In this document: piece after piece, positions 4,537 through 26,129 of the stretch
How positions within the stretch are numbered: the first letter of the stretch is position 1
How the letters are laid out: the number at the start of each line of letters is the position of its first letter
From: a plasmid
Sequence record: NZ_CP138856.1
Reading direction: 5' to 3' (one strand)
DNA: 35,773 bases
Translations under genes and position numbers: made by a program
The notes under the pieces: generated by a model
Databases searched by the model: none
What the model was told of the DNA's origin: nothing
The model's input: only the letters and a program-made list of their open reading frames with translations

Positions 4537-4543
4537 CGGGCCG

Positions 4544-9495: not shown

Positions 9496-9533
9496 TAAAA
9501 GTCCGTCCCCTCCTCATCGACTCCGAGCCTATG

Positions 9534-9615: not shown

Positions 9616-9636
9616 GCAATAAGTGAAAGGAATTCC

Positions 9637-9903: not shown

Positions 9904-9904
9904 A

Positions 9905-9965: not shown

Positions 9966-10347
9966 CTCACCTATTCTCTTAATATGAGCGAATGCTGAGA
10001 TGCCGCAGGACGCCTTTCGTGCTGCAAATGTGCCAGAGAGATTTCACAGAGAGATTTCTTCGGCAACTGACTTTTCGTCTTGGAGGGCACCAGAAAGTGT
10101 GAAAAGCGTTGGCAGGGGCGCCGCCGGGAACCGGCGGTCGGGGTCGGAGGTCTAAGAGACCGTGGCGTTGATTCTGGATACCGATGACGAGATTTTCATC
10201 GCGGCGGACGCCGCGGACATGGCGAAGCAGCTTGTCGGCCTCCTCTACGGCGGGTGAGGCACAGCAGAGCGTCGCTCCCGTGCCGAACGACGCCATCAAG
10301 ATCATCTCCGGCCCCGCGAAGCTGGACGAGACGAAGGAGTGAGGACC

Positions 10348-10896
10348 ATGTCCGACCAGAACATCAACATCAAGCTCGACCGCGGCGGCCCCGAGAACCA
10401 CGCCTGGACGGTGCTGGGCACCCTGCTCGCCTGCGGCGCTGTCGGCATGGCCGCCTGGGCGATCTCCAACGCCGGAGCCCTGGACCTGGCTGCGACCGGC
10501 CTGTTTTTCTTCTTCATGCAGCTCATCTCGATGATGCTCAAGGCGGGGCTGATCGTCGTCCCGGAGAAGAACCGGAAGGACTTCGGCGAGACGCGCGGCC
10601 TGCTCAAGACCGCCTGGCGCGAGTTCCAGGAGTTCCAGGGCCGCTCGCCCATCTGGCGGATGGCGCTGCTGGCGCTCGGCTTCACCGTCGGCTACATGAT
10701 CTTCCGCTGGGGACTCTCGGTGGCGCTCGGCATCTTCAGCAACGTCTGGATCGCCGGAGCCGCCTCGGCGCTCATCGCGTCCTTCATCGTCGCGCCGCAG
10801 CTGTTCACGAACCTGGTCTCGAAGATGAAGACGAAGTCGGGCCTCCAGGTGAAGACGACCACTGGTACGCCCGATGCCGAGAGGGGTGACGTCTGA
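10348..10896 (+). CDS. Hypothetical integral membrane protein (~4 TM helices), 182 aa; first gene of the high-GC block
   Basis: AAGGAG RBS 8 nt before the ATG at 10348. Hydrophobic helices. GC ~70%. Confidence 0.5.
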   Translation: MSDQNINIKLDRGGPENHAWTVLGTLLACGAVGMAAWAISNAGALDLAATGLFFFFMQLISMMLKAGLIVVPEKNRKDFGETRGLLKTAWREFQEFQGRSPIWRMALLALGFTVGYMIFRWGLSVALGIFSNVWIAGAASALIASFIVAPQLFTNLVSKMKTKSGLQVKTTTGTPDAERGDV

Positions 10897-11513
10897 TGAC
10901 GAAGGCGGCGATCACGACCATCGGCGCAGCACTGCTGGCCGCCGCTGCTCTCGCGCTCAGCGGGTGCAGCTACCCCGGCGACGACGAGGACCGCGCCGCG
11001 TTCCATGCCGAAGCGCAGGATCCAGTCCCCTCGGCACCGGCTACCGAGCCTACCGAGCCGGAGACCCCGGCCGAGGAGACCGGCGACGAGAGCACCGAGG
11101 AAGGCGGCCAGGGCGAGAAGTCGGGCGCAACCGCGGACCTGGGCGTCGAGGACGGGCATGTCCAGTATCTCCGCGCGATCCAGAACTTCTCGCCCGCGCT
11201 TGAGCGCTGGGTGCTCGACGAGGAGGCGGGCGAGGTCACCTACGGGATCGTCAACTGCGCCGGCCAGACGAAGTCCGAGGGCGTCGCCACCCTCGAGCGG
11301 GTCGACGGCGGCGATGGAGCAGCGTTCGAGGCGACGTGGATCGGCAAGTCGCCGTTGGAGAACGTCGCGGCGGAATCGATACGCGTCGAGATCACCGAGG
11401 ACACTTTGAAGAACTTCGCGGACGTTGCGACGTCCAGGACCGACATCGAGGCGAGCAACGTCGCTTCGATGTGCGCCGAGGTCGGCGAGACAGCCGCCGA
11501 CTTCGTCTTCTGA
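10896..11513 (+). CDS. Putative secreted lipoprotein, 205 aa (signal peptide + lipobox LSGC)
   Basis: N-terminal MTKAAITTIGAALLAAAALALSGC. Acidic Pro/Glu-rich linker. Start overlaps the upstream stop (TGATG). Confidence 0.55.
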   Translation: MTKAAITTIGAALLAAAALALSGCSYPGDDEDRAAFHAEAQDPVPSAPATEPTEPETPAEETGDESTEEGGQGEKSGATADLGVEDGHVQYLRAIQNFSPALERWVLDEEAGEVTYGIVNCAGQTKSEGVATLERVDGGDGAAFEATWIGKSPLENVAAESIRVEITEDTLKNFADVATSRTDIEASNVASMCAEVGETAADFVF

Positions 11514-11722
11514 GAATGACCACAAGAACGCCCCCAGATCTACTCCGGGACCTTCTCCGCGCGAGCAGGGTCGGACGCGACTCGGGAACAATGGTGCCGT
11601 GGCAGATTTCGACCTCCTCTGCGCGGCGCTTGTCTCCGCCCCGAAGACACCATCGAAGGTCTCGTCGCGGACGTTCCGAAGCTCCGGCACGACGAAGCCT
11701 GATCGTCGTCGTCCCGAGAAGA

Positions 11723-12388
11723 TCAGGCTCGTCCGGCGCGAAGGGCGATGAGGGCTGCTTCTACGCGGTTGCGCGCTTCAGTCTTCCGCAGGATCGCGGA
11801 AACGTGCACCTTGACGGTGCCGGGAGCGAGGTGCAGCGCTTTCGCGATCTCAGCGTTCGTCTCTCCTTGGCTGAGCCGGATCAGAATCTCTCGCTCGCGA
11901 GCCGTGAGGCGTTCGAAGCGTTCGACGGCGCTCGCGTACTGGGTGTACGTCGTCGAGACGCCGGAGTCGAGCAGACGCCGGGCGACCGAGGGCGAGAAGA
12001 ACGCTCCGCGACCGGCGACGGCGTGCACACCGGCGATCAGCTGGCGCGGATCGCCGGACTTGAGGACAAACCCGTCTGCGTCGAGCCGGATGGCCTCGGC
12101 GATGTAGTCGTCCTCCCCGAACGTGGTGACGAACAGGCAGGGGAGCGCGCTCCCGTCGGAGCGGAGCCGTTGCAGCGCGTCGAGTCCGCTCATCCCGGGC
12201 ATCTGGATGTCGAAGAGGGCGACGTCGAGACGGTGCGCGTCGATCTTGCGCAGGGCCTCTGCTCCGTCGGCGGCCTGGGCTACGACCTCGATGGCGGGAT
12301 CGGTGTCGAGGATCCCGACGATGCCGGTCCTCACGAGGGGGTCGTCGTCGGCGACCAGGACTCTGACCGGGGCCTCGGTCGCTGTCAT
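11723..12388 (-). CDS. Two-component response regulator, NarL/LuxR family, 221 aa
   Basis: Receiver domain (VLVADDDPLVR…D…FDIQMPGMSG) and LuxR helix-turn-helix (LTAREREILIRLSQGETNAEIAKALHLAPGTVKVHVSAILRK). Start overlaps the stop of the upstream kinase ORF (ATGA). Confidence 0.85.
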   Translation of the reverse strand: MTATEAPVRVLVADDDPLVRTGIVGILDTDPAIEVVAQAADGAEALRKIDAHRLDVALFDIQMPGMSGLDALQRLRSDGSALPCLFVTTFGEDDYIAEAIRLDADGFVLKSGDPRQLIAGVHAVAGRGAFFSPSVARRLLDSGVSTTYTQYASAVERFERLTAREREILIRLSQGETNAEIAKALHLAPGTVKVHVSAILRKTEARNRVEAALIALRAGRA

Positions 12389-13786
12389 CGTTGTCCTCCT
12401 GCGATGTACTCGGTGCTGGAGACCTCGTCCTGCGCGAAGCAGATCCGGTACACGTCCCCGGCAGCGTCGTCAAAGGTGTTCGCGGTCACGGCGTAGTCGT
12501 GGCAGTCGTCCGGTCGGTTCTCGCCCCGCCTGGCCGGCAGCTCGTGGCCGGGCAGGATCCGCTCGGTCTCCGCCCGCGCGTCTCCGACGCTGATGCTTGA
12601 GAAGGCCCCTGCCGACAGCAGCGCGCGGTGGTTCTGCACCACCGTCAGCGCCTCGACCGCTGCGAGCCCGACGACGACGATCGCCGCGGTCGAGGCGAGA
12701 ATCAGTCGCTGGCGGAGCTTCGTTCTGCCGGTCGAGCTCTCATCGACGTCTCTCGTCGCCTCCACAGCGCGATCATCGTGCGTGCTCTGCTCCTGACGGC
12801 GAGTCGGGAGGACCGCAGAGAGGACGAACGCACTGTCCGTCTTCTCCGCGGCGAGTTCTCCGCCGTGGGCGCGGAGCTCACTTTCCAAAGTGCTCAGGCC
12901 CGTGCCCGCTGTGTGCGCGTCGGCAGGAGTCTCGCCGAGGGCGTTCTCGATCTTCAGACGCAGCTCGGCACCGACGTCGGCAGCGGTGATGTCGATCGGG
13001 GTGCCGGGAGCGTGCCTGCTTGCGTTCGTGATCGCTTCTTGTAGGACCCTCGTGACCTGCTCGCCTCCGAAGTCCTGCAGCCGCCTGGGTTCCGGCAGTC
13101 CTTGCACGGTGATGCGCGCACCGGCTGCGCGGGCCCGGGCCAGCAGTGCATCGACAGATGCTGCGCCCATTGGCAGCACGGGAGCGCCGGATTCTGAGGT
13201 CGGAGACGGAGTCCCCCAGGCGTTCGACCGCGTGGGCGAGGTCGTTGCGGGCGTGTAAGAGCGAGGTGCGGGCGCTCTCGGGCAGTGCCGGGTCGATCTC
13301 GAGCCGTCCGAGATTGAGCGCGACGAGGCTCAACGAGTGGCCGAGGTCGTCGTGCAGCGACTGCGCGAGGGCGATCCGGTCGGCGGTGGCGCGCTCCTTG
13401 AGCTCGGCCAGGCGCTGGACCTGCCGCAGCTCTCGCTCGCGGTCTGCCCTCCGCCCGAGGACGATGTACTGGCGCACGGCGAGACCGATCAGCCAGGGCA
13501 CACCAGCGCGCATGAGCGCCGGGGGCAACTCCTCCGCGACGTAGAGCCAGTGCCCGTCGAGCCACGTGGCCCGGGCCATGCTCACGACGACCAGCACTGC
13601 CAGTCCTCCCAGGCCCGCGCGCGGACCCCTGGACCAGAGCCCGATTGCGATCGCGGCGATGCCGGTGAGCAGGGCCATGAAGAGGCCCGGCTCCGGCGCG
13701 GAGGCCAGCACCCCGAAACCGATCGCCGTTAGCGCGTCGACGCTCCGGCGCGCAGACGGACGATCAATTAGGGTCATGCGCTCCAT
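12385..13786 (-). pseudogene. NarL-type sensor histidine kinase, apparently frameshifted (~13185-13195), with an unusual ~140-aa C-terminal extension
   Basis: N-terminal part (frame of ORF 12878..13879): TM helices plus the HisKA_3 H-box (SLHDDLGHSLSLVALNL). C-terminal part (frame of ORF 12385..13179): HATPase_c (…EAITNASRHA…GTGLSTLESELRAHGG…). The frames switch within gacctcagaatcc. After the ATPase domain the ORF continues in frame for ~140 aa with one TM helix. Confidence 0.6.
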
Positions 13787-13911
13787 TCTACCGGGGACCG
13801 TGGGCTCGCCGCCTCCCTCGATCGGGCGTGCGCAGCACCTCGCCGGTATGACCGTGGGCATAGACGAGTCGCCCCGCATGGCAGATTCTGAGGCCGAACC
13901 GCGTCCATAGC

Positions 13912-14631
13912 GTGGATTTCATGACTCACGAAACTTCGACGCGCACGCTTTCGACGTCGCGCAGATCCTCGTCCCGCCCCGTGCCGTGGCCCGCGCTGTT
14001 GATTGCCGTCGCAGCTCTTGCTGCCCTCGCTCTCGCGACGTATCCGGTGCGTGAGCGCCTCTTCACCGCTGTCGCCGGTCTCGCCGAGGGCTCGGCACTG
14101 GCCTCGGCGGTGGGATCCGTGGCCGAATTCGGTCTGCTTGCCCTCGTGGCGACCGCCGGCGTCCTCGCTCTCTGGTGCTGGCTGCGCGAGCGCCGGCGGT
14201 TCTGGCTCCTGGCGCTGGCTGGACTCGGCGTGATCACGGCCTACGGATTGAGCGAGGCCGTCAAGCTGCTGGTCGAGGAGCCGCGGCCCTGCAGCGTCGT
14301 CGACACTGCCACTGTGCTCAGCTGCCCCGGGAGCGGGGACTGGTCGTGGCCGTCGAATCACGCCGTCCTGGCCGCTGCCTTCGCCACCGCCTGCATCCTC
14401 GTCGTCCCCCGCCTCGCCTGGTTCGCGTTGCCTCTCGCGCTGGCGATCGCCGCCTCTCGAGTGGCCGCCGGAGTCCACTACGTCCACGACGTGCTCTCCG
14501 GTCTCGCGCTCGGTGCCCTCGTCGTCGCGGCCGTCGTCGCCGCGGCGTCGCCGGTGCTGGACCGGCGTCTGACTGGCGGACGGGACGGCCATCCGGATTC
14601 GGCCAGCCGGTCCCAGGGCGGGCGCGCATGA
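13912..14631 (+). CDS. PAP2-family membrane phosphatase (BcrC/undecaprenyl-pyrophosphate phosphatase-like), 239 aa
   Basis: All three PAP2 motifs are present: KLLVEEPRP, PSNH, SRVAAGVHYVHD. Stop overlaps the ABC ATPase start (ATGA). Confidence 0.75.
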   Translation: MDFMTHETSTRTLSTSRRSSSRPVPWPALLIAVAALAALALATYPVRERLFTAVAGLAEGSALASAVGSVAEFGLLALVATAGVLALWCWLRERRRFWLLALAGLGVITAYGLSEAVKLLVEEPRPCSVVDTATVLSCPGSGDWSWPSNHAVLAAAFATACILVVPRLAWFALPLALAIAASRVAAGVHYVHDVLSGLALGALVVAAVVAAASPVLDRRLTGGRDGHPDSASRSQGGRA

Positions 14632-15552
14632 TCGAGGTCGACCGTCTCTCGAAGCGCTACGGCCAGGTGACCGTTGTTGAAGGATTGAGCTTCACGGTCC
14701 CCGACGGATCCATCACCGGGTTCCTAGGCCCGAACGGAGCCGGCAAGTCCACGACCATGCGATGCCTCCTCGGGCTCCACAAGCCCACCACCGGAACCGT
14801 GCTCATCGACGGGCTCCCGCTGACCGCCCAGACGGCCGGCCGAGGTCGTCGGAGCCGTCCTCGACGCCTCCTGGTTCCACCCCGGCCGGACCGGACTGGC
14901 GCACCTGACGACCATCGCTGCTTCTGCCGGCCTACCCGACCGCCGCGCCTGGGAGGTACTCGAGGCCGTCGCGTTGACCCAGGCAGCTCATCGCAGGATC
15001 GGCGGCTACTCGCTCGGGATGAAGCAGCGCCTGGGGCTCGCGGCCGCCCTGCTGGGCAGACCGCGCAACATCGTCCTCGACGAGCCGATGAATGGCCTCG
15101 ACCCGCAGGGGATGGAGTGGATGCGCGCCTTCCTGCGCGATGCCGCCGCGAGCGGCCACGCCGTCCTTGTCTCCTCCCACCTGCTCGGCGAGATGGAGAC
15201 CCTCGCCGACCGCCTCGTCGTCATCGACAACGGCCGCTTGCTCGGCCAGTGGGACGTCGCCGATCTTCTGCACGCGCGCAGCCGCCAAGCGCTCCTCCGC
15301 ACCGACGACGACGAACGCGTCGAGCAGGCTCTGCGCGGACTGCGGGTCCCCGTAACCGCACTGCCCGAGGGACTCTGCGTGACATTCGACGAGACGGTCC
15401 CCGACGCGCTCACGCTCTCGCGGACCTGCCGAGACCTCGACGTGCTCATCACTGCCCTGACGGACAAGCCGATCCGGCTGGAAGAGGAATTCCTCCGCCT
15501 CACCGACCGATCATCCGAAGCCGAACATGGCAAAGAAAGGCCCGAGCGATGA
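14628..15552 (+). pseudogene. ABC transporter ATP-binding protein, disrupted by a 2-bp deletion (~14834) relative to the intact copy at 29862..30788
   Basis: Walker A (GPNGAGKST) in the N-terminal frame. ABC signature (LSGGMKQRL-like YSLGMKQRL) and Walker B (IVLDEP) are in a +2 frame after the indel. Copy 2 has gacgaggccgg where copy 1 has gacggccgg. Confidence 0.7.
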
Positions 15553-16280
15553 CACGAGCATTGACAGCTGAGGTGCGCCGACTGCTCACCGTGCGCTCCA
15601 CAGGCATCTTCGCTGCGCTGCTGATCGGCTGCTGCGTCGGCCCCATCGTCCTGATGGGCATCGTCTACGACCCGGCCTATCGAGGGCCGATCGACGCCGG
15701 TGATCTGGGCAAGTGCGTGAGCATCTTCCATGTGCTGGCCATCGTGTTCGCCGGCACACACACCGCGACCGAGATCAATGCGGGGTCGACGGCGCTGTCC
15801 TTCCTCACGCAGAAGAGTCGATGGGCCTCGTTGGTGGCACAGGCAGCGGTCCAGTGGGCGTTCCTCGCATTCGCGTACGTCGTCGGCATCGGCCTCGCGC
15901 TCGTCGCGGCGACGTTCTATCCCGACGGGCTGGCCATGTCGCCGCGAGGGTGGGCCTACCTCGCGGCCTACCTCCTCGTCGTTCTCCTGTGGGCGACGAT
16001 GGCGACGGCGCTTGCCGTCCTCACGCGCTCCGTCGCGGTGTCCGTCGCCGCGCCGATCACGTGGATGCTCCTGATCGAACAGCTCGCGTCCATGGTCCCG
16101 ATGCTCGAGGCGATCACGCCGTGGCTGCCGTTCAACGCCAGCCACATGCTCCTCGCCCAGGCACTTGGAGAGGCCCCTGCAGGCATGTCCGTGTGGCCTC
16201 CTGCCGTCGCGCTTCTCGTACCGGCACTCGGCCTGGCGGGCGCGGGGCTATGTGCCCATGTCCGACGGGACTCGGCGTGA
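15549..16280 (+). CDS. ABC-2 type transporter permease, 243 aa (6 TM)
   Basis: Hydrophobic 6-TM protein. ATG overlaps the ATPase stop (ATGA). Typical BcrB-like small permease. Confidence 0.65.
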   Translation: MTRALTAEVRRLLTVRSTGIFAALLIGCCVGPIVLMGIVYDPAYRGPIDAGDLGKCVSIFHVLAIVFAGTHTATEINAGSTALSFLTQKSRWASLVAQAAVQWAFLAFAYVVGIGLALVAATFYPDGLAMSPRGWAYLAAYLLVVLLWATMATALAVLTRSVAVSVAAPITWMLLIEQLASMVPMLEAITPWLPFNASHMLLAQALGEAPAGMSVWPPAVALLVPALGLAGAGLCAHVRRDSA

Positions 16281-16474
16281 TGGGCAGGCCTGCGCCTCGC
16301 ATCCGCCGCCCAAGACGGTTCGTGGCGTCGCAGGGCTGGGGCTGACTCACACCGCCGTTCAACAAACGGTCGTTGATGTGAACAGTGGTCCGGAGGAGCC
16401 GATCGCGAGCATTTCGCCGAGTGGGTGTTCACAAACCCGTTCAACTACATCTAGACTAGACAGAGGCAGTTGAA

Positions 16475-17315
16475 GGTGCTGTTGCAACTTGGGGCGGGAG
16501 CCAAGAAAGCTCCGTTTTTATTGTGTGATCAACGCTATGTTCCTGTGTTGTCAGGCCGTCTCGAATACCCGGCTAACAATCACTGCATCCGGATTCGGGT
16601 GACCATAGGCAAACATCGTGCCCTGCCCCTTCCGCAATGAGTGCATCGCTTCCATCCCTTTCAACGTCCGGTAGGCAGACGTTCGGTTTTTGAATGCTCC
16701 TTTCGGCCCCAGGATCCGCTTTAACCGGCCATGATCGCCTTCAATGACGTTGTTGAGGTATTTCACCCGACGATGCTCGACCGTCGATGGACAGACGCCT
16801 TCCGCCTTCAGCTCAGAGATTGCCCTGGCGAGTGAGGGGGCCTTGTCGGTGCTGATCACCCGCGGATAGCCTGCCGATTTATTCGACCGTAGCGTCTTCG
16901 CCAGGAAACGCTTCGCTGCCGCGACGTTGCGTTTTGGTGAGAGGTAGAAGTCCAGGGTCTGGCCACCGGCGGTGATTGCCCGATAGAGGTAGCACCACTT
17001 TCCCCCGACCCGGATATAGGTCTCATCCACCCGCCAGGACCTGGCCTGCCAGTCAGGAACTTGCCGATACCACCGGGTCTTCTTATCCAGCTCAGGAGCA
17101 TATTTCTGGACCCAGCGGTAGATCGTGGTGTGATCGACCGGCACTCCCCGCTCGGTCATCATCTCTTCGAGGTCGCGATAGCTCACGCCGTAGCGGCAGT
17201 ACCACCGCACCGCCCACAGGATGATTTCACGAGGGAACTGCCGACCGGAGAAGATGCCCATGGACCTGATTATTCCACGCCGGTCTTCCTACTGCCCCAA
17301 CTTTGCAACAGCACC
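16475..17315 (-). mobile_element. IS6-family insertion sequence (IS26-like), 841 bp, copy 1
   Basis: Terminal inverted repeats ggtgctgttgcaac (16475) and gttgcaaagttgggg…/ccccaactttgcaacagcacc (17295-17315) resemble the IS26 GGCACTGTTGCAAA ends. Encodes a DDE transposase. Confidence 0.8.
16551..17261 (-). CDS. tnp: IS6-family DDE transposase, 236 aa
   Basis: MGIFSGRQFPREIILWAVRWYCRYGVSYRDLEEMMTERGVPVDHTTIYRWVQ… is clearly related to Tnp26/IS6100-type transposases, but not identical to IS26 Tnp as I recall it. Confidence 0.85.
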   Translation of the reverse strand: MGIFSGRQFPREIILWAVRWYCRYGVSYRDLEEMMTERGVPVDHTTIYRWVQKYAPELDKKTRWYRQVPDWQARSWRVDETYIRVGGKWCYLYRAITAGGQTLDFYLSPKRNVAAAKRFLAKTLRSNKSAGYPRVISTDKAPSLARAISELKAEGVCPSTVEHRRVKYLNNVIEGDHGRLKRILGPKGAFKNRTSAYRTLKGMEAMHSLRKGQGTMFAYGHPNPDAVIVSRVFETA

Positions 17316-17377
17316 AAAATATATCATCATGAACAATAAAACTGTCTGCTTACATAAACAGTAATACAAGGGGTGTT

Positions 17378-18193
17378 ATGAGCCATATTCAACGGGAAAC
17401 GTCTTGCTCGAGGCCGCGATTAAATTCCAACCTGGATGCTGATTTATATGGGTATAGATGGGCTCGCGATAATGTCGGGCAATCAGGTGCGACAATCTAT
17501 CGATTGTATGGGAAGCCCAATGCGCCAGAGTTGTTTCTGAAACATGGCAAAGGTAGCGTTGCCAATGATGTTACAGATGAGATGGTCAGACTAAACTGGC
17601 TGACGGCATTTATGCCTCTTCCGACCATCAAGCATTTTATCCGTACTCCTGATGATGCATGGTTACTCACCACTGCGATCCCCGGGAAAACAGCATTCCA
17701 GGTATTAGAAGAATATCCTGATTCAGGTGAAAATATTGTTGATGCGCTGGCAGTGTTCCTGCGCCGGTTGCATTCGATTCCTGTTTGTAATTGTCCTTTT
17801 AACAGCGATCGCGTATTTCGTCTCGCTCAGGCGCAATCACGAATGAATAACGGTTTGGTTGATGCTAGTGATTTTGATGACGAGCGTAATGGCTGGCCTG
17901 TTGAACAAGTCTGGAAAGAAATGCATAAGCTTTTGCCATTCTCACCGGATTCAGTCGTCACTCATGGTGATTTCTCACTTGATAACCTTATTTTTGACGA
18001 GGGGAAATTAATAGGTTGTATTGATGTTGGACGAGTCGGAATCGCAGACCGATACCAGGATCTTGCCATCCTATGGAACTGCCTCGGTGAGTTTTCTCCT
18101 TCATTACAGAAACGGCTTTTTCAAAAATATGGTATTGATAATCCTGATATGAATAAATTGCAGTTTCATTTGATGCTCGATGAGTTTTTCTGA
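17378..18193 (+). CDS. aph(3')-Ia: Aminoglycoside 3'-phosphotransferase APH(3')-Ia (kanamycin/neomycin resistance)
   Basis: Protein MSHIQRETSCSRPRLNS…LMLDEFF matches the Tn903/Tn4352 aphA1 product. The upstream ttacataaacagtaatacaaggggtgttATG leader is the classic Tn903 sequence. Low GC (~44%). Confidence 0.95.
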   Translation: MSHIQRETSCSRPRLNSNLDADLYGYRWARDNVGQSGATIYRLYGKPNAPELFLKHGKGSVANDVTDEMVRLNWLTAFMPLPTIKHFIRTPDDAWLLTTAIPGKTAFQVLEEYPDSGENIVDALAVFLRRLHSIPVCNCPFNSDRVFRLAQAQSRMNNGLVDASDFDDERNGWPVEQVWKEMHKLLPFSPDSVVTHGDFSLDNLIFDEGKLIGCIDVGRVGIADRYQDLAILWNCLGEFSPSLQKRLFQKYGIDNPDMNKLQFHLMLDEFF

Positions 18194-18208
18194 TAGTTAG
18201 TCTTTGTA

Positions 18209-18236
18209 GGGTGCTGTTGCAACTTGGGGCGGGAGC
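18209..18236 (+). mobile_element. 28-bp remnant of the IS6-family left end (ggtgctgttgcaacttggggcgggagcc) fused to the interior of an smr gene; this is the tandem-duplication junction
   Basis: Identical to the first 28 bp of the IS at 33446. Sequence then continues as cgaaaatcgcggcgg = position 3004 onward. Confidence 0.8.
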
Positions 18237-18472
18237 CCGAAAATCGCGGCGGATAGCACGGCGGCGAGCACGACCCCGCTGGCTCCCCAGATGCCATAGG
18301 CGACGCCGATCTGCATTCCTTCGCGCAGGCAGAAGGTGAGGAAGACGAAAGTGCCGATGTATCCGGCAGCAACCACGATGTACCAGGATGGGTGATTGAG
18401 CGCCGCCTTGAGAGACAGCGTCGCCGCCACTTCGGTAGTGATGGCGCCAGCGAGCAGGAACCACTGCTTCAT
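18236..18472 (-). pseudogene. 3'-truncated copy of smr (N-terminal ~79 codons), fused to the IS remnant
   Basis: Duplicate of 3004..3239. The ORF reads through into IS-derived sequence (…AAIFGLPPQVATAPYKD*). Confidence 0.75.
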
Positions 18473-19014
18473 GGGGTTGTTCCTTCGATCAGGGAGCGAA
18501 TGCTGGAGACGACGGCTTCGAGATCCGCGCCGTGGAGGGTGGACACACCTGTGGCCTGGGCGCCCCAGAGTCCGTCGGCGGCGAGTCGGGCGGTGGTCAG
18601 CCTGGCTCGGGTGGCGGCGTCGAGATCGTCCGGGAGTTCGAGCCAGCGGCCCATCCGCGTAGTCCACGGTTCGGTGAGTTCGGGCCGATACGTCGCTTGG
18701 CCCCAGATGATGAACTCGGCGCGCTTGGCGGCCCCGTGGGCGGCGACGTGAACGTAGCTCAGGAGCCGCTCGGTGGCGTTGGCGTTCTCGAGGGGCTTGC
18801 CAAGGGTGGCAGTCATGTCGTTCTCGACGTTGGCCGCAGCGTGGTCGACGATCGCGGCGAGCAGTACGTCGCGGTTGCGGAAGTGATATAGCAATCCCGG
18901 TTTGGTGAGCCCGGCCTCGTGGGCCACTGCGTCAAGGGTAATGTCGCCACCCTCCGCTGCGTTCATGACGCGGAGGGCAGCTTCCAGGATCTCGGAGCGC
19001 TGACTGGTTCGCAT
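18469..19014 (-). CDS. TetR/AcrR family regulator (copy 2)
   Basis: Identical duplicate of 3236..3781. Confidence 0.8.
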   Translation of the reverse strand: MRTSQRSEILEAALRVMNAAEGGDITLDAVAHEAGLTKPGLLYHFRNRDVLLAAIVDHAAANVENDMTATLGKPLENANATERLLSYVHVAAHGAAKRAEFIIWGQATYRPELTEPWTTRMGRWLELPDDLDAATRARLTTARLAADGLWGAQATGVSTLHGADLEAVVSSIRSLIEGTTP

Positions 19015-19148
19015 ATAGCTAACTTTACCATTTGGTAGGTGAAGCCTTCAACTGCGGGCGCTGGTAGGGGCACCTGGGGTACACCCTAAGTGAACAGTTT
19101 GAGAATTACATGCATCGCGTTTAACTCACTGTTCGCTAGGGTGGGTTT

Positions 19149-19769
19149 ATGAGTAATGAAACAGAACCGTCACTACCTCTAGACATTCCTGAACAACCAG
19201 AGGTGGTTACGGGGCAGAAAATCGGTTACGCGCGCGTGAGTTCCAAGGATCAGAATCTCGACCGGCAGTTGGCGGCGTTGAAGAAGGAAAAAGTCTTCCG
19301 CATCTTCACCGACACGGTGAGTGGTTCGTCCACCCAGCGCCCCGGCTTAGATGGGGCGCTTGATTATGTGCGCGCCGGCGATCAACTCATTGTGGTGAGC
19401 ATGGACAGGCTTGCCCGTTCCCTTATCGACCTCCACCGCCTGGTCGATGAACTCACCGAACGCGGAGTATCCGTGAAATTCCTCAAAGAGGGGCAGACCT
19501 ATTCATTGGACTCGAGTCCGGTGGCCAAGCTCATGCTTGGCCTACTCGGGTCGGTGGCGGAGTTTGAACGCGCGATTATTCGTGAACGCCAAGCCGAAGG
19601 CATTGCCAAAGCCAAGGCGCGCGGCGTGTATAAGGGGCGTGCGAAAGTCCTCAACGAGGAGCAAATAATGCAGGCGCGCGAGTGGGTGAGCGAGGGGGTT
19701 CCGAAAACAGAGGTTGCCCGCCGCTTCGGGATAGGGCGCACCACACTGTATAAATACCTCGCCGACTAA
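19149..19769 (+). CDS. Serine recombinase/resolvase (copy 2)
   Basis: Identical duplicate of 3916..4536. Confidence 0.85.
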   Translation: MSNETEPSLPLDIPEQPEVVTGQKIGYARVSSKDQNLDRQLAALKKEKVFRIFTDTVSGSSTQRPGLDGALDYVRAGDQLIVVSMDRLARSLIDLHRLVDELTERGVSVKFLKEGQTYSLDSSPVAKLMLGLLGSVAEFERAIIRERQAEGIAKAKARGVYKGRAKVLNEEQIMQAREWVSEGVPKTEVARRFGIGRTTLYKYLAD

Positions 19770-19776
19770 CGGGCCG

Positions 19777-20070
19777 TTAGAGGTGATCAGCAAGCGAGAA
19801 AAAGACAAGTGCCCCCAGGATGAGACCGAGAAAGATTCCGACATCGATCCAGCGCGATTTTTTCACCGGCTTCTCCCACGGCATGGTGGCTGCTATGGCG
19901 ACACCAACGCGGACTGCCGCAGCGAGCGAGCAGACGGCGAAAACAGTCAGAAGCTCTGCCACCCAGCCAAACAGGCTGGCAACGATAATGGAAATGATCG
20001 CCACCCCGAAAATCACGGTGCTGGTGCGAAGCGATGGACGAGGTGCGGGTGAAGGATGTTTTCTACTCAT
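19777..20070 (-). CDS. Hypothetical small membrane protein (copy 2)
   Basis: Duplicate of 4544..4837. Confidence 0.35.
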   Translation of the reverse strand: MSRKHPSPAPRPSLRTSTVIFGVAIISIIVASLFGWVAELLTVFAVCSLAAAVRVGVAIAATMPWEKPVKKSRWIDVGIFLGLILGALVFFSLADHL

Positions 20071-20305
20071 GTGGACACCATGTCATATGCGTGTGCACTT
20101 TCCCCCGAACAAGGATTTGCCCAGCTCGCGCATGATAGACACGCGTACTGGGCGACTTTTATCAGCCGACGGACTCGTGTGCGTTAGCCGCGCGTGACGG
20201 TGGGTTTGTGCGGCAGGTGCCAGTTCAACTGGCAAAGGAGCATAATCAAGAAAAACCGTCAACCCATTGTTGACTTGTTTAGTCTCCCGTCGGTAGACTA
20301 CTGTT

Positions 20306-20515
20306 ATGAAGCGAAACGCCGTCATCAAGAAATTGAAAGCGGAAGCCAAGCGGCGCGGTCTTGAATTTGAGGAAATCGCCCTATCGCGCCATGACGCTTA
20401 TCGGGTAGGCAGCACCACCCGAACCTTAGGTAGGCACCGTGAGATTGACGATGTGACAGTCAAGAAGTTTTTCGACCAATACGCCCAAGAATTAGGTAAA
20501 GGCTGGTGGAGGTAA
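20306..20515 (+). CDS. hicA: HicA-family toxin candidate (copy 2)
   Basis: Duplicate of 5073..5282. Flanking repeats at 20117..20211 and 20914..21003. Confidence 0.5.
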   Translation: MKRNAVIKKLKAEAKRRGLEFEEIALSRHDAYRVGSTTRTLGRHREIDDVTVKKFFDQYAQELGKGWWR

Positions 20516-20895
20516 TGACCACGACATACACAGTAACCGCAGAACGCGGAACCAGCGGAGTATGGGTGCTCGAATGCGCCGAACTAGGGGCAGTGTCCCA
20601 AACTAAGCGGCTGGCTAATGCTGCCGACGAGATGCGCGAAGCACTGGCCTACCAGGCAGGCCTAGACCCAGACGAAATCAACATTATTGTTGATGTTGTT
20701 CTCCCACCGGGCCTTGCGGAAATGAAAGCTCGCGCCGAAAAAGAACGCGAAGAAGCGGCACGACTGGCCGCTGCGGCACAGGCAAGCACTCATGACCTCG
20801 CTGTTGCAATGAGAAACGCTGGAATGACCGTGCGAGATATGGGAACAGTCCTCGGAGTGTCTTACCAGCGCGCCCAAAAGCTCGCAGCATCCTAA
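20515..20895 (+). CDS. hicB: HicB-family antitoxin candidate (copy 2)
   Basis: Duplicate of 5282..5662. Confidence 0.55.
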   Translation: MTTTYTVTAERGTSGVWVLECAELGAVSQTKRLANAADEMREALAYQAGLDPDEINIIVDVVLPPGLAEMKARAEKEREEAARLAAAAQASTHDLAVAMRNAGMTVRDMGTVLGVSYQRAQKLAAS

Positions 20896-21371
20896 ACACT
20901 GAAAGCGAAAGTCGCCCAGTACGCGTGTCTATCATGCGCGTGCTGGGCGATTTTTCTCGACCGGTGGACTCGTGTGCGTTGGTGGCGCGTGACGGTGGGC
21001 TTGCAAGGTAGTCCCCAGTTAGTGGTGTGGGCGGCGTTAAACGGCTCGGCCTGGTCGATGATTTGGCGTCCAATCTTGGCCGCTTCGCGCCCGAAAAGTT
21101 TGTCCATCACTGCTCCTTAACGCTTGGCTCTTTAGTGCTGCCGCGAAAGTCGCGTGTGCGACTTTCTTGCCCCGCGTGATTATCGCGTCCTGGCGTTCGT
21201 AGTTATCGCTAGCGGTTGCCTGACACAACCAGAGACACCGAAGCGCCGGCTACTTTTCTGCGCTGACCACGCTTTACGAGCGCTAAGCGCTCTAGGTTTA
21301 TGGTACATTTGCACTAGAAGTGCCTAGGGGTGTTCCGATGCTCACCGTGCTGGTTAGAGGAGGTGGCGTGT

Positions 21372-24300
21372 GTGCTGACTATCGCGAAGATGGGTGCGCA
21401 TTCCGTGGCCTATTATCAGTCCACAGTTGATGAGAATCGAGGGCCGGATTCGTACTATTCCGAGGACGGAAAGCAGCCAGCTTCGGTGTGGCTTCGGGGT
21501 GAAAAAGTGGCCGAGGTCTCGGCGTTTTTGGGTGCCGAAAACGGCGCTGTTGTGTCGGGAAAAACAGTTGAGGATTGGTTCAATAAGGCGGTTGCCCCGA
21601 GTGGTGTAAAGCTTGGAAAAGCTCTCGGGGATAAAGGGGTTCCGGGGTTCGATCTGACGTTTTGTGCGCCGAAATCTGTTTCATTGTTGTGGGGCATGGG
21701 TGTTGATTCTTCGGTTCGTAGCATCGTTGATGAAGCCCACCAGGCGGCAGTAAGTCAGGCATTGGATTACTTATCAGAGCATGCCGGCTATACGCGAAAG
21801 CAAGACCCTGCTGCGTCAAAGAAGCGTCTGATCATTGAAAAATTGGCGGGTATTTCTGGCGTGAAATATGAACACCGAACTTCACGTGCGGGCGATCCTC
21901 ACGTCCATTCCCACGTGTTGTTGGCGAATAAGCAGTTGTGCCAGGACGGTAAGGCTCGCACTCTGGATGGGGTTAGTTTGTATCACGAAGCGCGTGCGGC
22001 AGGCATGGTGTATCAGGCCACGGTGCGCGAAATTCTGAGTCGAAAGCTCGGTGTGGAGTTCGGTGATGTGGTCAATGGGTGCGCGGAAATCGTCGGTCTT
22101 GATGACCCAGAATTGCTTGCGTCGTATTCAACTAGGGCGCGCGAGATTGACCAATGGCAGGCCGAGAATGGTTTAGAGACGCGGGCGTCGTATGAGCGCA
22201 TCGCGCAGAAAATCACCCGCCGCACTAAGGACACCGAGACTCCACTAGACGAGTTAGAAACCGAGTGGGCTAGTGCCGAACATGGCGCAACGGTGCGTGC
22301 GTTTGTGGACGGACTGGAGCCAAGAAGTAAAGCGGCCTCGCGTGAATTGGGGGAGGATTTCTTGCCGAAACCTGCCCAGATTTTGGCCGAGGTTATCGCA
22401 GAACGCTCCACGTTTACTCGTGCCGATGTAGCTGAAAAAGCAGCGGAACTTATCCGCCCTGGCGCAGTTTCTCCGCAGGATATGACTGCCACTGTGGAGC
22501 GGCTTGTCGATGCCGCGTTGGGTGAAAAAGGAACGTGGTCGGTAACTCCGGAGAAATCCCGCGAGCTGGATAATACCCAGCGCGAAGGCTCGCAGAAGTA
22601 CACCACCGTCGAGGTTGTCGACGAGGTTGAACGAGTAGTTGATATGGCTACTGCACGGGTTGAGCGCGGGGTTAATGCCGAGTCGATTCAGCCGGTTGAA
22701 GGCGAACTATCTCCTGCTCAGGCGGACGCTATGCGCGCGGTCGTCAGTTCTGACTATCTGACTTCTGTGGTAGTCGCGCCTGCCGGTGCTGGTAAGACGT
22801 CTTCACTTAAAGCCGCGCACAAGGCATGGAACCAGTCTGGTAAACACGTCGTGGGTCTAGCACCGACTGGTAAGGCTGCTGATGTGATGGTGGGCGAGAA
22901 TGTGGCTGATGAATCCATGACGATTGCCCGCGCATATGTTGGCACAGACGAGCTGACACCGGAGCAAACAGCGGCGAAGTTGGGGTGGGGCCAGGACACC
23001 GTCCTAGTCGTAGATGAAGCCGGCATGGTGTCTAACCCGGATATGGCTCGCGTGCTGGAGACGGCTAGTGCCGCAGGTTCGCGTGTGGTTTTTGTCGGTG
23101 ATCCAGAGCAGTATTCGGCGGTTAAGGCACGCTCTGGTCTGCTGGCAACCTTGTCCCATGAGCTTCCCGATGCGGTCGAACTAGCCGAGGTGTTCCGCCA
23201 GCGTGATGCCGGTGAGCGTGAAGCATCGAAGTGGTTGCGCGGTGGTGAAGAATCAGACGTTTCCCGTGCCGCCGAGTGGTATATGCACCATGATCGCCTG
23301 CATGCTGGTTCGGTAACGGCCATGATGGACGATGCTTTGGCTGGGTGGCGTGAGGATACTGCCGCAGGAAAGCAGTCGCTGCTGGTTGCTGCCACCCGCG
23401 ACCAGGTCACCGCGCTTAATGCTGCGGCACAGAAGATTCGCGCCGAGCGTGGTGAGATTAACGCTGAGAACCGATTGTGCTTGTCTGATGGTTTGGAAGC
23501 TGGCGTTGGTGATGTAGTCCTGACTCGTCGTAATGACTCGAAGCTGATTACTAGCAGCGGGGATATGGTGCGCAATGGTCAACGCTGGGTTGTTGATTCC
23601 ATCGGTTATGACGGCTCGATTACTGCCCGTCGATGTGACGATACTTCTGCCACAGTGACGTTAAATAGCGATTACCTGGAAAAGCATGCCCAACTCGGTT
23701 ATGCCGCTACCGGGCATAGTTCCCAAGGTGCGACCGTGGATGTGTCCCGTGTAGTCGCTGGTGTCGGCAACCTGGATAAAGCTAGCGTTTACGTTCCTAT
23801 GACCCGTGGACGTGAAGGTAACTTCCTCTACATCGCAGAGACTCAACCGGGAGATACTGAGACCGGGCACGGTCAGATACGCCAGGTTTCTCGGCGCGAG
23901 TCTGCCGAGTACGCCCGCGACCTCTTGGTGTCTGCAGGTGTGCGCGCCCAAGGTGACCGCACACCTCAAGCGTTATTTGGACAGGCTAAGCAGGACTGGG
24001 AACTGGCCAAACTGGTCAATCACCCTACCCATATAGATACTGGTAGTCCTTTTGCTGGCACCGAGATGGGTGCCTACATGCAGGCGTTTGCCGCTAAGCG
24101 CGAAGCCCGCTTCGTTGATTTCCATGCTCGCGCTCAAGTCGATAGTACCGATGAGGTAGCACAGCCAGAGCTCGCATCCCCTTGCGAGCAGCAGGAACAG
24201 GACTTTGGCGATGCCTTGGGGCACCTCGATACTGAGATAGACCGCGTCAGCACGCAGCTAGAGACGCTGCGCGGTGAGTACGACCAAGCCAACCAGGCGG

Positions 24301-24728
24301 TTGAGCAGCTTGGGAAGCAGTGCGAACAGCAAGAACAGGTGGTTCGTGAGTCTGCAGAAGAAAAGAACGCGAGGGGCTTTTTCGGCAGACTACGCCACGG
24401 CAAGGAGGACCAAGCAATCCTCGATGAAGCAATCCGACTGCGCGACAAAGTCGCGCAGCACTACGACCAAGCTGTGGACTATCGCGACAGCTTTACTACC
24501 CCGATTCGCCAGTTGGAGACCGAACTCGACGCACTGTCTACTCAACGTCGCGATATGCAAGGCCTAAAGAAGTCCATGGACTTCCTCGACTCACTCGGCA
24601 TGAGCGCTACCGCAGATGATGAGATGGTATCCCGTATCCACCAGCAAGCTGCTGCAGATAACGACTACGACAACGCCCCAGACAACTGGCTAGACAACAC
24701 CCCCAGCAACGACGGCCCAGAGCTTTAG
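21372..24728 (+). CDS. traA: TraA relaxase/helicase (copy 2)
   Basis: Identical duplicate of 6139..9495. Candidate oriT copy at 21133..21371. Confidence 0.85.
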   Translation: MLTIAKMGAHSVAYYQSTVDENRGPDSYYSEDGKQPASVWLRGEKVAEVSAFLGAENGAVVSGKTVEDWFNKAVAPSGVKLGKALGDKGVPGFDLTFCAPKSVSLLWGMGVDSSVRSIVDEAHQAAVSQALDYLSEHAGYTRKQDPAASKKRLIIEKLAGISGVKYEHRTSRAGDPHVHSHVLLANKQLCQDGKARTLDGVSLYHEARAAGMVYQATVREILSRKLGVEFGDVVNGCAEIVGLDDPELLASYSTRAREIDQWQAENGLETRASYERIAQKITRRTKDTETPLDELETEWASAEHGATVRAFVDGLEPRSKAASRELGEDFLPKPAQILAEVIAERSTFTRADVAEKAAELIRPGAVSPQDMTATVERLVDAALGEKGTWSVTPEKSRELDNTQREGSQKYTTVEVVDEVERVVDMATARVERGVNAESIQPVEGELSPAQADAMRAVVSSDYLTSVVVAPAGAGKTSSLKAAHKAWNQSGKHVVGLAPTGKAADVMVGENVADESMTIARAYVGTDELTPEQTAAKLGWGQDTVLVVDEAGMVSNPDMARVLETASAAGSRVVFVGDPEQYSAVKARSGLLATLSHELPDAVELAEVFRQRDAGEREASKWLRGGEESDVSRAAEWYMHHDRLHAGSVTAMMDDALAGWREDTAAGKQSLLVAATRDQVTALNAAAQKIRAERGEINAENRLCLSDGLEAGVGDVVLTRRNDSKLITSSGDMVRNGQRWVVDSIGYDGSITARRCDDTSATVTLNSDYLEKHAQLGYAATGHSSQGATVDVSRVVAGVGNLDKASVYVPMTRGREGNFLYIAETQPGDTETGHGQIRQVSRRESAEYARDLLVSAGVRAQGDRTPQALFGQAKQDWELAKLVNHPTHIDTGSPFAGTEMGAYMQAFAAKREARFVDFHARAQVDSTDEVAQPELASPCEQQEQDFGDALGHLDTEIDRVSTQLETLRGEYDQANQAVEQLGKQCEQQEQVVRESAEEKNARGFFGRLRHGKEDQAILDEAIRLRDKVAQHYDQAVDYRDSFTTPIRQLETELDALSTQRRDMQGLKKSMDFLDSLGMSATADDEMVSRIHQQAAADNDYDNAPDNWLDNTPSNDGPEL

Positions 24729-24869
24729 TAAAAGTCCGTCCCCTCCTCATCGACTCCGAGCCTATGGTAAACAATGTTTACACAGTGGAGAGATACCGCT
24801 GCGAAAAATATGTACACTGCCGCAAGGCAAACTGTAAACATTGTTTACGCAATAAGTGAAAGGAATTCC

Positions 24870-25136
24870 ATGGTTCAAGGCCCCCACAAGTCAGGACGAG
24901 TGGTGTCTGTGCGGATGTCAGAAGACATCATTGAGCGCTTAGATACTTTGTGTGCCCGTACTGGTCGCAGTCGCGGCTTCTACCTCAAGATGGCAGTTAC
25001 TGCGATGCTGCCCCAGTTAGAGGAATATCACTGGGAACACGTCGCAGCGGACTTCGAAGACAAGAGCATTGAAAACGAGTTTTACCGCATCATGCTCGCC
25101 GGTCTGTCTGTAGAACATGACGATAAAGAGAAATAG
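24870..25136 (+). CDS. Ribbon-helix-helix DNA-binding protein (copy 2)
   Basis: Duplicate of 9637..9903. Operator palindromes at 24767..24848. Confidence 0.6.
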   Translation: MVQGPHKSGRVVSVRMSEDIIERLDTLCARTGRSRGFYLKMAVTAMLPQLEEYHWEHVAADFEDKSIENEFYRIMLAGLSVEHDDKEK

Positions 25137-25580
25137 AAGACTTATCTACCAGCATGTTTAGCATTTACAGTAAACTGTACAACTGTATGCCTGTAAAGCT
25201 CACCTATTCTCTTAATATGAGCGAATGCTGAGATGCCGCAGGACGCCTTTCGTGCTGCAAATGTGCCAGAGAGATTTCACAGAGAGATTTCTTCGGCAAC
25301 TGACTTTTCGTCTTGGAGGGCACCAGAAAGTGTGAAAAGCGTTGGCAGGGGCGCCGCCGGGAACCGGCGGTCGGGGTCGGAGGTCTAAGAGACCGTGGCG
25401 TTGATTCTGGATACCGATGACGAGATTTTCATCGCGGCGGACGCCGCGGACATGGCGAAGCAGCTTGTCGGCCTCCTCTACGGCGGGTGAGGCACAGCAG
25501 AGCGTCGCTCCCGTGCCGAACGACGCCATCAAGATCATCTCCGGCCCCGCGAAGCTGGACGAGACGAAGGAGTGAGGACC

Positions 25581-26129
25581 ATGTCCGACCAGAACATCAA
25601 CATCAAGCTCGACCGCGGCGGCCCCGAGAACCACGCCTGGACGGTGCTGGGCACCCTGCTCGCCTGCGGCGCTGTCGGCATGGCCGCCTGGGCGATCTCC
25701 AACGCCGGAGCCCTGGACCTGGCTGCGACCGGCCTGTTTTTCTTCTTCATGCAGCTCATCTCGATGATGCTCAAGGCGGGGCTGATTGTCGTCCCGGAGA
25801 AGAACCGGAAGGACTTCGGCGAGACGCGCGGCCTGCTCAAGACCGCCTGGCGCGAGTTCCAGGAGTTCCAGGGCCGCTCGCCCATCTGGCGGATGGCGCT
25901 GCTGGCGCTCGGCTTCACCGTCGGCTACATGATCTTCCGCTGGGGACTCTCGGTGGCGCTCGGCATCTTCAGCAACGTCTGGATCGCCGGAGCCGCCTCG
26001 GCGCTCATCGCGTCCTTCATCGTCGCGCCGCAGCTGTTCACGAACCTGGTCTCGAAGATGAAGACGAAGTCGGGCCTCCAGGTGAAGACGACCACTGGTA
26101 CGCCCGATGCCGAGAGGGGTGACGTCTGA
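25581..26129 (+). CDS. Hypothetical membrane protein (copy 2; synonymous SNP at 25787)
   Basis: Duplicate of 10348..10896. Confidence 0.5.
   Translation: MSDQNINIKLDRGGPENHAWTVLGTLLACGAVGMAAWAISNAGALDLAATGLFFFFMQLISMMLKAGLIVVPEKNRKDFGETRGLLKTAWREFQEFQGRSPIWRMALLALGFTVGYMIFRWGLSVALGIFSNVWIAGAASALIASFIVAPQLFTNLVSKMKTKSGLQVKTTTGTPDAERGDV

Follow-up and report, generated by a model that had tools for sequence, protein, structure and literature searches.

The window analysed here is the whole of sequence record NZ_CP138856.1 (35,773 nucleotides), a complete circular, mobilizable, pNG2-like plasmid of 35.8 kb from Corynebacterium, deposited with rep at its start. It was taken to be a closed circle because the step from position 35773 to position 1 is contiguous in the C. 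diphtheriae plasmid CP103906.1, to which window positions 34287–35773 plus 1–2080 align (CP103906.1 positions 5622 down to 2056). The backbone genes, namely rep, resolvase, MobF relaxase, an RHH gene and parA, are 99.8–99.97% identical to those of CP103906.1. This closest backbone relative is itself deposited as a complete head-to-tail dimer, the halves of which differ by 5 indel bases; judging from that record, plasmid dimers appear to occur in this family, or at least get assembled. Two modules are inserted in the backbone: a tetR/smr-A/smr-B/NIPSNAP cassette at 2081–3843, and a block at 10034–34286 that substitutes for 400 bp of backbone. The block consists of a two-component/PAP2/ABC module, 99.8% identical to pLEW279a, followed by IS1628–aphA1–IS1628. 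The plasmid, a member of the C. diphtheriae plasmid family, carries kanamycin resistance, and a duplication has doubled its aphA1, its relaxase and resolvase genes and its two-component/ABC module. No publication describing this plasmid was found in a literature search.

The insertion sequence that borders aphA1 was identified as IS1628, a member of clade I of the IS6/IS26 family. It is 841 bp long, encodes a 236-aa PF13610 transposase and shows 99.5% identity to annotated copies; the ISFinder values for IS1628, as quoted in PMC6807381, are likewise 841 bp and a 236-aa transposase. Its ends read GGTGCTGTTGCAA... and ...TTGCAACAGCACC, with inverted repeats of about 20 nt that start with GG and have a G at position 7. 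The matching positions (13 + 7) give a terminal inverted repeat of about 20–22 nt, and in an intact end GCAACTTGGGGCGGGAG is followed by CCAAGAAAG. The two 894-bp passenger segments, at 17316–18209 and 32552–33445, are identical. Positions 31711–34286 comprise IS1628, the 894-bp aphA1 segment and a second IS1628, the transposase genes of the two elements both lying on the minus strand, an arrangement that agrees with the definition of a pseudo-compound transposon (PMC12802963). This transposon is flanked by CAGTTGAA on one side and GAAAATTA on the other, with no target-site duplication.

The aphA1/IS1628 boundary was not found in PLSDB, in GTDB representative genomes or in JGI metagenomes, and the IS1628-bounded aphA1 transposon in this record is unmatched in any collection searched. 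A swap of IS1628 for the IS26 of Tn4352 at identical boundaries was considered and rejected: the upstream IS1628 lies 4 bp nearer aphA1 (GATA is missing), and downstream IS1628 cuts in right after CTTTGTAG, where IS26 contexts go on with AGACACAAACC. A look-up with the aphA1 protein was uninformative on ancestry; the matches listed were all from outside Corynebacterium, almost all of them beside 234-aa IS26-type transposases.

Self-alignment of the window revealed a head-to-tail duplication, in which 3004–18237 matches 18237–33473 over 15,237 columns with 1 mismatch and 2 gap openings. This bears out the initial annotation, which had described the sequence downstream of the first aphA1 as the novel joint of a tandem duplication. 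Both rep and parA are single-copy and lie outside the duplicated unit, and a single-unit form of the plasmid would measure about 20.5 kb. The coordinates of all features are collected in Table 1. The annotation had also set the event apart from a homologous IS–IS exchange, and this distinction stands: such an exchange would yield a 1,735-bp unit of IS plus aphA1, and its joint would hold a full IS. Unequal homologous crossover between IS copies was rejected on the same footing, the 15.2-kb unit starting inside smr and its joint having no intact hybrid IS.

Table 1. Features of the duplicated region and of its joint in NZ_CP138856.1
Feature	Position	Strand	Details
Duplication unit, copy 1	3004..18237		15,234 bp; 5' part of smr-A, tetR, resolvase, MobF relaxase, RHH gene, two-component/PAP2/ABC module, IS1628, aphA1, 28-bp stub
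Duplication unit, copy 2	18237..33473		15,237 bp; relative to copy 1: 25787 (T for C), 26958 (+T), 30068-30069 (+GA)
Unduplicated segment	33474..35773 + 1-3003		5.3 kb; remainder of IS1628 copy C, parA, hypothetical gene, rep (1-1443; PF03090), NIPSNAP, smr-B, 3' part of smr-A
IS1628 copy A	16475..17315	-	841 bp; transposase gene 16551-17261; upstream of aphA1 copy 1
IS1628 copy B	31711..32551	-	Upstream of aphA1 copy 2
IS1628 copy C	33446..34286	-	Full element; the joint retains its first 28 bp
aphA1 / aph(3')-Ia, copy 1	17378..18193	+	Copy 2 at 32614-33429
Solo IS1628 stub	18210..18237	+	28 bp; nt 1-27/28 of the transposase-distal end; whole terminal inverted repeat + 5-7 nt; sole partial IS1628 match in the window
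Novel joint C-C-C-G	18236..18239		IS nt 27 at 18236, ambiguous C at 18237, smr 3005-3006 at 18238-18239; read from the sequence
8-mer CCGAAAAT at smr breakpoint	3004..3011	+	Again at 34285-34292: last 2 nt of IS1628 copy C + backbone flank
Intact smr-A	2880..3239	-	119 aa; middle gene of the operon tetR (3236-3781), smr-A, smr-B (2554-2883)
Truncated SMR-A' fusion ORF	18197..18472	-	91 aa: 78 native residues + LPPQVATAPYKD from the IS stub and the aphA1 3' flank

Exact copies of the 28-mer GGTGCTGTTGCAACTTGGGGCGGGAGCC are found at 4 places in the window, at 16475, 18210, 31711 and 33446, with 0 occurrences expected by chance. At 16475, 31711 and 33446 it opens full 841-bp elements that are mutually identical; at 18210–18237 it directly abuts CGAAAATCGCGGCGG, the only other site of which is at 3005, inside smr. 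The stub begins 16 bp downstream of the aphA1 stop codon (18191–18193). The initial annotation had read this region as 28 bp of the IS start, placed after the aphA1 stop and giving way to the interior of smr, and had noted that the same 28 bp at 33446 run into a full IS. Both readings were confirmed, with the joint falling at 3004/3005 and the element at 33446–34286 being a complete 841-bp IS1628, and several details were revised. The remnant had been called the IS left end; with the transposase gene on the minus strand (16551–17261), it is the right, transposase-distal end (IRR). The duplication endpoint had been placed inside the terminal repeat and is found 5–7 nt beyond it. Lastly, a 2-bp 'cc' microhomology had been suggested. 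The joint reads GAGC-C-C-G, with three Cs, where the IS gives CC then A and smr gives CC then G; since only the C at 18237 is ambiguous, the microhomology is 1 bp.

The C or CC at the joint can be read either as IS nt 840–841, in which case smr 3006 abuts the IS terminus, or as derived from smr. With its 1-nt overlap and no target-site duplication, the final joint has the form of an illegitimate (microhomology) duplication or deletion, and on its letters it reads as non-homologous under every history considered here. Products of IS26-family translocatable units or cointegrates have a complete IS at every unit boundary, and the joint keeps only nt 1–27/28. A crossover by a serine or tyrosine recombinase was rejected, as a shared 2-bp core would leave two Cs rather than three and there is no extended identity.

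On its other side, the joint falls in a multidrug-type operon that is otherwise well represented: the tetR/smr-A/smr-B cassette is widespread and intact in many Corynebacterium genomes, and the predicted intact pair at 2554–3239 (PF00893) has the make-up of a paired-type SMR. The annotation had anticipated that the rearrangement leaves a truncated smr copy, and this is what was found, with 78 of 119 codons retained and 13 foreign codons added. The 91-aa SMR-A' fusion product matches PF00893 at profile positions 2–79 of 93 and lies downstream of the second tetR. No SMR partner gene follows it; its stop codon is 3 nt from that of aphA1, the two genes being convergent. An exact-protein look-up found the fusion protein not to be on record. 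The smr copy at the joint is a truncated remnant, and annotators should not count this second smr as a functional gene.

The three differences between the copies all lie in the pLEW279a-like module, outside any homopolymer, and are private to NZ_CP138856.1. At 10554/25787 there is C in copy 1 and T in copy 2, the derived form being that of copy 2. Copy 1 has a 1-bp deletion at 11724, by which the stop codon of the response-regulator gene changes from TAG to TGA, and a 2-bp deletion at 14833 that causes a frameshift in the ABC ATPase gene. These differences may be true divergence between the copies, or else consensus errors of long-read sequencing. Compared with three relatives, the histidine-kinase gene has a 1-bp insertion and a G-to-T change in both copies; these changes are older than the duplication. 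Direct repeats of 15 kb, two resolvase genes and two relaxase regions should destabilise the duplication, and it is therefore expected to be either recent or kept by selection.

The same differences bear on the possibility of an assembly artefact, in which the true plasmid would be the 20.5-kb form, chimeric reads, a molecule present in the minority or a distinct circle of 15.2 kb would have given rise to the joint, and the unit would have been threaded twice. Small plasmids are often over-assembled. The joint was absent from every collection searched, and the 1 SNP and 3 indel bases between the copies are like the 5 indel bases in CP103906.1, which suggests long-read consensus error. Simple concatemer over-assembly was nonetheless rejected, as it would repeat the whole circle and 5.3 kb are not repeated. 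A clean novel joint should also need several supporting reads, and the differing consensus implies that the two copies were called separately, presumably from long reads that span them. A 15.2-kb circle devoid of rep and the putative origin region could not persist, and the IS-side breakpoint coincides with one seen in three independent assemblies, which is unexpected for a random chimera. On this balance, an artefact is considered improbable; were the joint an assembly problem, or a one-off illegitimate event, it would be of local interest only.

Close relatives were retrieved through exact-protein look-ups with the relaxase and the ABC permease. Six metagenomic contigs (L027–L031 and L033), 99.7–99.98% identical to the window, carry one unit with an intact smr and without aphA1; in these, a single full IS1628 lies between the ABC permease gene and parA, with both boundaries placed as they are in the window. 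Other relatives carry aphA1 in different arrangements. In L037, IS1628–aphA1–IS26 is followed by genes for a LysR-family regulator, a beta-lactamase and a transpeptidase (pbp2m-type module), and in L025 and L038 aphA1 is inverted, with a 40-bp IS26 end remnant against IS1628. These structures show that IS1628 has repeatedly remodelled the aphA1 region in relatives of this plasmid.

The comparison with related plasmids that the annotation had proposed gave a divided answer: relatives that have a single unit, with smr intact and a full IS1628, exist, and the exact 20.5-kb single-copy parent (aphA1–IS1628–parA) was not found among those retrieved. The annotation had reasoned that relatives with a full IS and only one unit would imply a recent local event or an artefact, and this holds in part, in that the event is private to this record. 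A BLAST search of PLSDB found no joint-spanning plasmid and only two records carrying this stretch of smr, intact in both, and the joint 34-mer was absent from GTDB representative genomes and JGI metagenomes. The duplication thus appears private to NZ_CP138856.1 among the collections searched. In PLSDB, further truncated IS1628 ends were also looked for; 9 records carry this IS end, and the best place listed per record is a full copy.

A truncated IS1628 end of closely similar extent was present in L032, L034 and L035, three assemblies with at least 2 genomic contexts, in which only a 34-bp stub is left of the IS1628 upstream of aphA1 (hereafter the L032-type stub). The region reads CAGTTGAA, GGTGCTGTTGCAACTTGGGGCGGGAGC, ACCCACC and AAAATATATC in succession. 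The stub corresponds to IS nt 1–27, then ACC (nt 839–841), then CACC, and is searchable as GGGGCGGGAGCACCCACCAAAATAT; the ACC is reachable via the AGC common to nt 25–27 and 836–838. Both flanks are native and identical to the window flanks of IS copy A, as in a remnant of near-precise excision. On this evidence, IS1628 has been lost near-precisely at least once, breaking at the same nucleotide as the window stub. These stubs, which end at nt 27 in a different rearrangement and in three other assemblies, lend support to the IS-end-associated recombination that the annotation had offered as one option.

The window joint, GGGAGC-CC-GAAAAT, can also be read as IS nt 1–27 plus nt 840–841 plus smr from 3006. 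The right-hand sides differ, with ACCCACC (7 nt, partly filler) in the L032-type stub versus 1–2 nt in the window, and what is strictly shared is the nt-27 breakpoint only. For an element of 841 bp, the probability that two breakpoints agree to within 1 nt by chance is roughly estimated at about 0.4%. When the IS ends were joined in silico, the terminal repeats paired through about nt 23 (dG -28 kcal/mol, z = -6.1), and nt 27/28 lies just inside the inner edge of this pairing. A second coincidence concerns the smr side, where the breakpoint 8-mer CCGAAAAT is the one that recurs at the right boundary of IS copy C. Only 0.17% of positions have GAAAAT within ±2 nt, and the GAAAAT flank beside IS copy C is native backbone. 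An exchange at CCGAAAAT would set a full IS exactly against smr 3006.

Three histories yield the same circle: direct exchange, a dimer followed by a 5.3-kb deletion, and a full-IS joint followed by near-precise loss of the IS. Under the first two, one illegitimate event would have joined IS1628 copy C at nt 27/28 to smr at 3004/3005, either by exchange between sister plasmids or by the 5.3-kb deletion in a head-to-tail dimer; in the dimer variant, one monomer would thereby lose parA, rep, NIPSNAP, smr-B, the 3' end of smr-A and the greater part of the IS. Such a single join is the simplest account. It agrees with the 1-nt microhomology and the lack of a target-site duplication, its topology is the same as that of the deposited circle, CP103906.1 was itself deposited as a dimer, and a full-IS intermediate is not on record. 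It leaves unexplained, however, both the match within 1 nt between the IS breakpoint and that of the L032-type stub, which would have to come down to chance or to a site prone to breakage or stalling at the IS end's inner edge, and the presence of CCGAAAAT at smr and at the right boundary of IS-C (about 0.2% by position). The partner breakpoint in the L032-type stub, a few nt from the other end of the IS, favours an end-to-end process instead, and the one candidate hairpin at the breakpoint (GGAGC-N7-GCTCC, IS nt 23–39) was rejected as the cause of the break, its fold energy being no better than that of shuffles (z = -0.48). We regard a single illegitimate join as a serious possibility, though on balance a doubtful one.

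The history ranked first, because it accounts for both coincidences and has the L032-type stub as a precedent, is that the duplication formed with a full IS1628 at the joint and that this IS was then almost precisely lost. We hold to it tentatively, as something close to, and short of, an even call. In the first step, the duplication would arise with a joint that holds a whole IS1628, the right end of which meets smr at about 3005/3006; the joint would then read aphA1–IS1628–GAAAATCGCGG, with TTTGCAACAGCACCGAAAATCGCGGCGG as the predicted full-IS k-mer. One route to this structure would begin with an attack of IS1628 copy C on smr, freeing a translocatable unit (the IS plus 3006...aphA1) that would be re-incorporated beside an IS1628 of a sister plasmid, as is canonical for the IS26 family. 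Elements of this family amplify aphA1 plus adjacent DNA via translocatable units (PMC9602291), and their cointegrate routes have been described in PMC7885326, where the minimum identity for the targeted conservative reaction is given as unknown. The other route would be an unequal exchange at the 8-bp CCGAAAAT common to the IS-C/backbone boundary and smr. The repeated remodelling of this region by IS1628 in relatives also speaks for the first step. In the second step, IS nt 28/29 to 839/840 would be deleted, leaving nt 1–27/28 plus 1–2 terminal C, for which replication slippage aided by the terminal inverted repeats is a plausible mechanism. The order of events, the involvement of transposase and the slippage mechanism are all points that we infer, the last by analogy with Tn10 and Tn5.

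Several considerations count against this two-step history. The full-IS intermediate was sought by exact look-up of the three fusion proteins predicted for it, and no record of any of them was found; a single event would also be more parsimonious than two. The shared nt-27 breakpoint would be accounted for just as well by a fragile site at nt 27/28 that joins to an arbitrary partner. IS26-family elements are described as not excising, with only cointegrate routes given (PMC6807381, PMC12802963).

A one-step process that keeps the transposase would be an abortive copy-in attack on smr by IS1628 copy C, with the strand-transfer intermediate mis-repaired about 27 nt inside the IS end. The position of the breakpoint just inside the transposase-binding inverted repeat, its recurrence at the same nucleotide in the L032-type stub and the evident activity of IS1628 in this lineage are all in keeping with such an event. 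No known IS26-family reaction cuts or joins inside the element, however, strand transfer taking place at the terminal nucleotide (PMC7885326), and the joint bears neither a target-site duplication nor any other transposase signature. A literature search for a Tnp26 footprint beyond the inverted repeat found no data. The proposal is purely speculative, and we consider it very improbable.

Returning to the preferred history of a full-IS joint followed by loss of the IS, it may be asked how general such a loss is. That IS1628 undergoes recurrent, position-preferred near-precise loss, leaving a 27–28-nt solo end with a complete inverted repeat, is a broader claim, and one that we would call unlikely at present. 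If it were true, IS-bounded amplification or cointegrate joints would become IS-less joints resembling pure illegitimate recombination, transposase-binding solo ends would be left scattered through resistance regions, and nt 27/28 of IS1628 would be a testable hotspot. If the stub marks near-precise loss of an IS26-family element, some "illegitimate" joints in resistance regions may be decayed IS-mediated joints. The rearrangement is of an ordinary kind for plasmids; its unusual feature is the recurrent 27–28-nt solo IS1628 end.

Of the systems with which the duplication can be compared, the CP103906.1 multimer is the nearest in sequence, having the same backbone (99.8–99.97% identity) and a head-to-tail repeat; it differs in that here 5.3 kb, including rep and parA, is present once and the joint is novel and non-homologous. 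Short-junction (microhomology) tandem duplications and gene duplication-amplification are known under antibiotic selection, and such structures should be unstable and increase gene dosage. The present structure resembles these in that expectation and in being a head-to-tail repeat of a resistance region, joined with 0 to a few bp of homology. Unlike them, it has one breakpoint at a recurrent position in an IS end, and its location on a small plasmid makes it topologically equivalent to a dimer with a deletion. Nearly precise excision of Tn10 and Tn5 is slippage stimulated by inverted repeats. There, as in the L032-type stub, the element is lost while a short end remnant stays and the flanks remain intact, and the breakpoints are at very short repeats beside the terminal inverted repeats; the remnant seen here, however, keeps one inverted repeat (27–28 nt + 1–7 nt) rather than a small palindrome. 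In the literature consulted on IS26, no description of near-precise excision was found for the IS6/IS26 family.

The remaining comparison is with IS26-family amplification of aphA1 (PMC9602291), under which the duplication is not filed because a complete IS at each unit boundary is lacking: the joint here has a 28-bp stub where that system has a full IS. There are two copies here, as opposed to 7–65 there, and the element is IS1628 in a Gram-positive plasmid, as opposed to IS26 in Acinetobacter, with a role for the transposase that is, in the present case, conjectural. In its overall plan, the duplication is nevertheless like that system. In both, aphA1 lies in a pseudo-compound transposon with directly oriented IS26-family elements, the repeated unit comprises the transposon together with long adjacent DNA, and the unit has one IS-defined end, with the other end at an arbitrary point in the neighbouring DNA.

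The two copies of the 15.2-kb duplication differ at three sites (10554/25787, 11724/26958 and 14833/30068-30069), none of which lies in a homopolymer. Copy 1 has lost 2 bp in the ABC ATPase gene, which puts that gene out of frame, and 1 bp in the response-regulator gene, whose stop codon becomes TGA instead of TAG; the third difference is a SNP in copy 2. When set against pLEW279a, a relative of the two-component/PAP2/ABC module, and the other relatives, all three differences are private to the window record. Compared with pLEW279a and the related contigs L025 and L027, the histidine-kinase gene has an extra base (GGAT[T]CTGAGG) and a G-to-T substitution in both copies, and the gene is broken into two overlapping minus-strand ORFs (12385-13179 and 12878-13879); this change is older than the duplication.

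Two genes run towards each other at the joint (18191-18199): aphA1 on the plus strand ends 3 nt from the stop codon of the truncated smr fusion ORF on the minus strand. The full IS1628 end carries a terminator-like hairpin and T-run (nt 23-47) that are severed by the joint, so that, judging from sequence, read-through antisense transcription between the two genes is possible. IS1628 stubs were also found in three other assemblies, flanked by the ABC permease side and aphA1, at a position that a full IS1628 (16475-17315) occupies in the window; their breakpoint in IS1628 is the same nucleotide as that of the window stub. The 8-mer CCGAAAAT occurs at the smr breakpoint (3004-3011) and again where the last IS1628 ends on its right side (34285-34292), the latter copy consisting of 2 nt of the IS followed by native backbone. 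Only 0.17% of positions have GAAAAT within +/-2 nt.

Coordinates of features in the window and in related sequences
Feature	Sequence	Position	Remark
Histidine-kinase gene changes, copy 1	window	about 13193 and 13376	
Histidine-kinase gene changes, copy 2	window	about 28427 and 28610	
Membrane-protein ORF cut by last IS1628	window	34287-34328	minus strand
41-nt inverted repeats	window	4886-4926 / 5675-5715	3' of resolvase gene
41-nt inverted repeats, second copy	window	20119-20159 / 20908-20948	3' of resolvase gene
IS1628-aphA1-IS1628 pseudo-compound transposon	window	31711-34286	passenger segment 894 bp
34-bp IS1628 stub	L032	10927-10960	nt 1-27 + ACCCACC
34-bp IS1628 stub	L034	10327-10360	nt 1-27 + ACCCACC
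34-bp IS1628 stub	L035	9572-9605	nt 1-27 + ACCCACC

The closest backbone relative, the C. diphtheriae plasmid CP103906.1 (1-25151), was deposited as a complete head-to-tail dimer (2 x about 12.57 kb). The two halves are separated by 5 indel bases and 0 substitutions, with the relaxase split in one half, and the record represents either a genuine dimer or over-assembly of long reads. Relative to this plasmid, the window is without 400 bp of backbone (5623-6022 in CP103906.1), and the last IS1628 interrupts, past codon 14 (MLYIVPGILVGIIF...), a small unannotated backbone ORF for a membrane protein. The RHH remnant that the initial annotation had placed beside the IS (34345-34487, 87.5% identity to 9819-9962) proved to be a native backbone feature and not a product of the IS; CP103906.1 has one too. 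Downstream of the resolvase gene, the 41-nt inverted repeats (98% complementarity, 748 nt apart) are overlapped by 84-nt direct repeats of 79% identity; the inverted repeats could be res or oriT-related sites.

For the pseudo-compound transposon, neither IS1628/aphA1 boundary had a match in PLSDB, nor did the downstream boundary, where only 16 bp separate the aphA1 stop codon from IS1628, in GTDB representative genomes or JGI metagenomes. On the parA side, the IS boundary of L025 lies 4 bp (GATA) further out than that of the window. A metagenomic relative (L037 11003-17453) has IS1628-aphA1-IS26 and, after it, genes for a LysR-family regulator, a class A beta-lactamase and a transpeptidase, which look like a pbp2m-type module; in L037 these lie on the two-component/ABC module that the window also has. 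The distance from IS1628 to aphA1 is 4 bp shorter than that from IS26 to aphA1 in Tn4352, and aphA1 expression may differ from that in the IS26 hybrid-promoter context because the upstream -35/-10 spacing is unlike that of the hybrid promoter. In L025 (17176-17292) and the related contig L038 (about 11714-12004), where aphA1 is in the opposite orientation, the IS1628 end is directly abutted by the first 40 bp of IS26, which suggests that a Tn4352-like unit had its IS26 interrupted by an IS1628 insertion.
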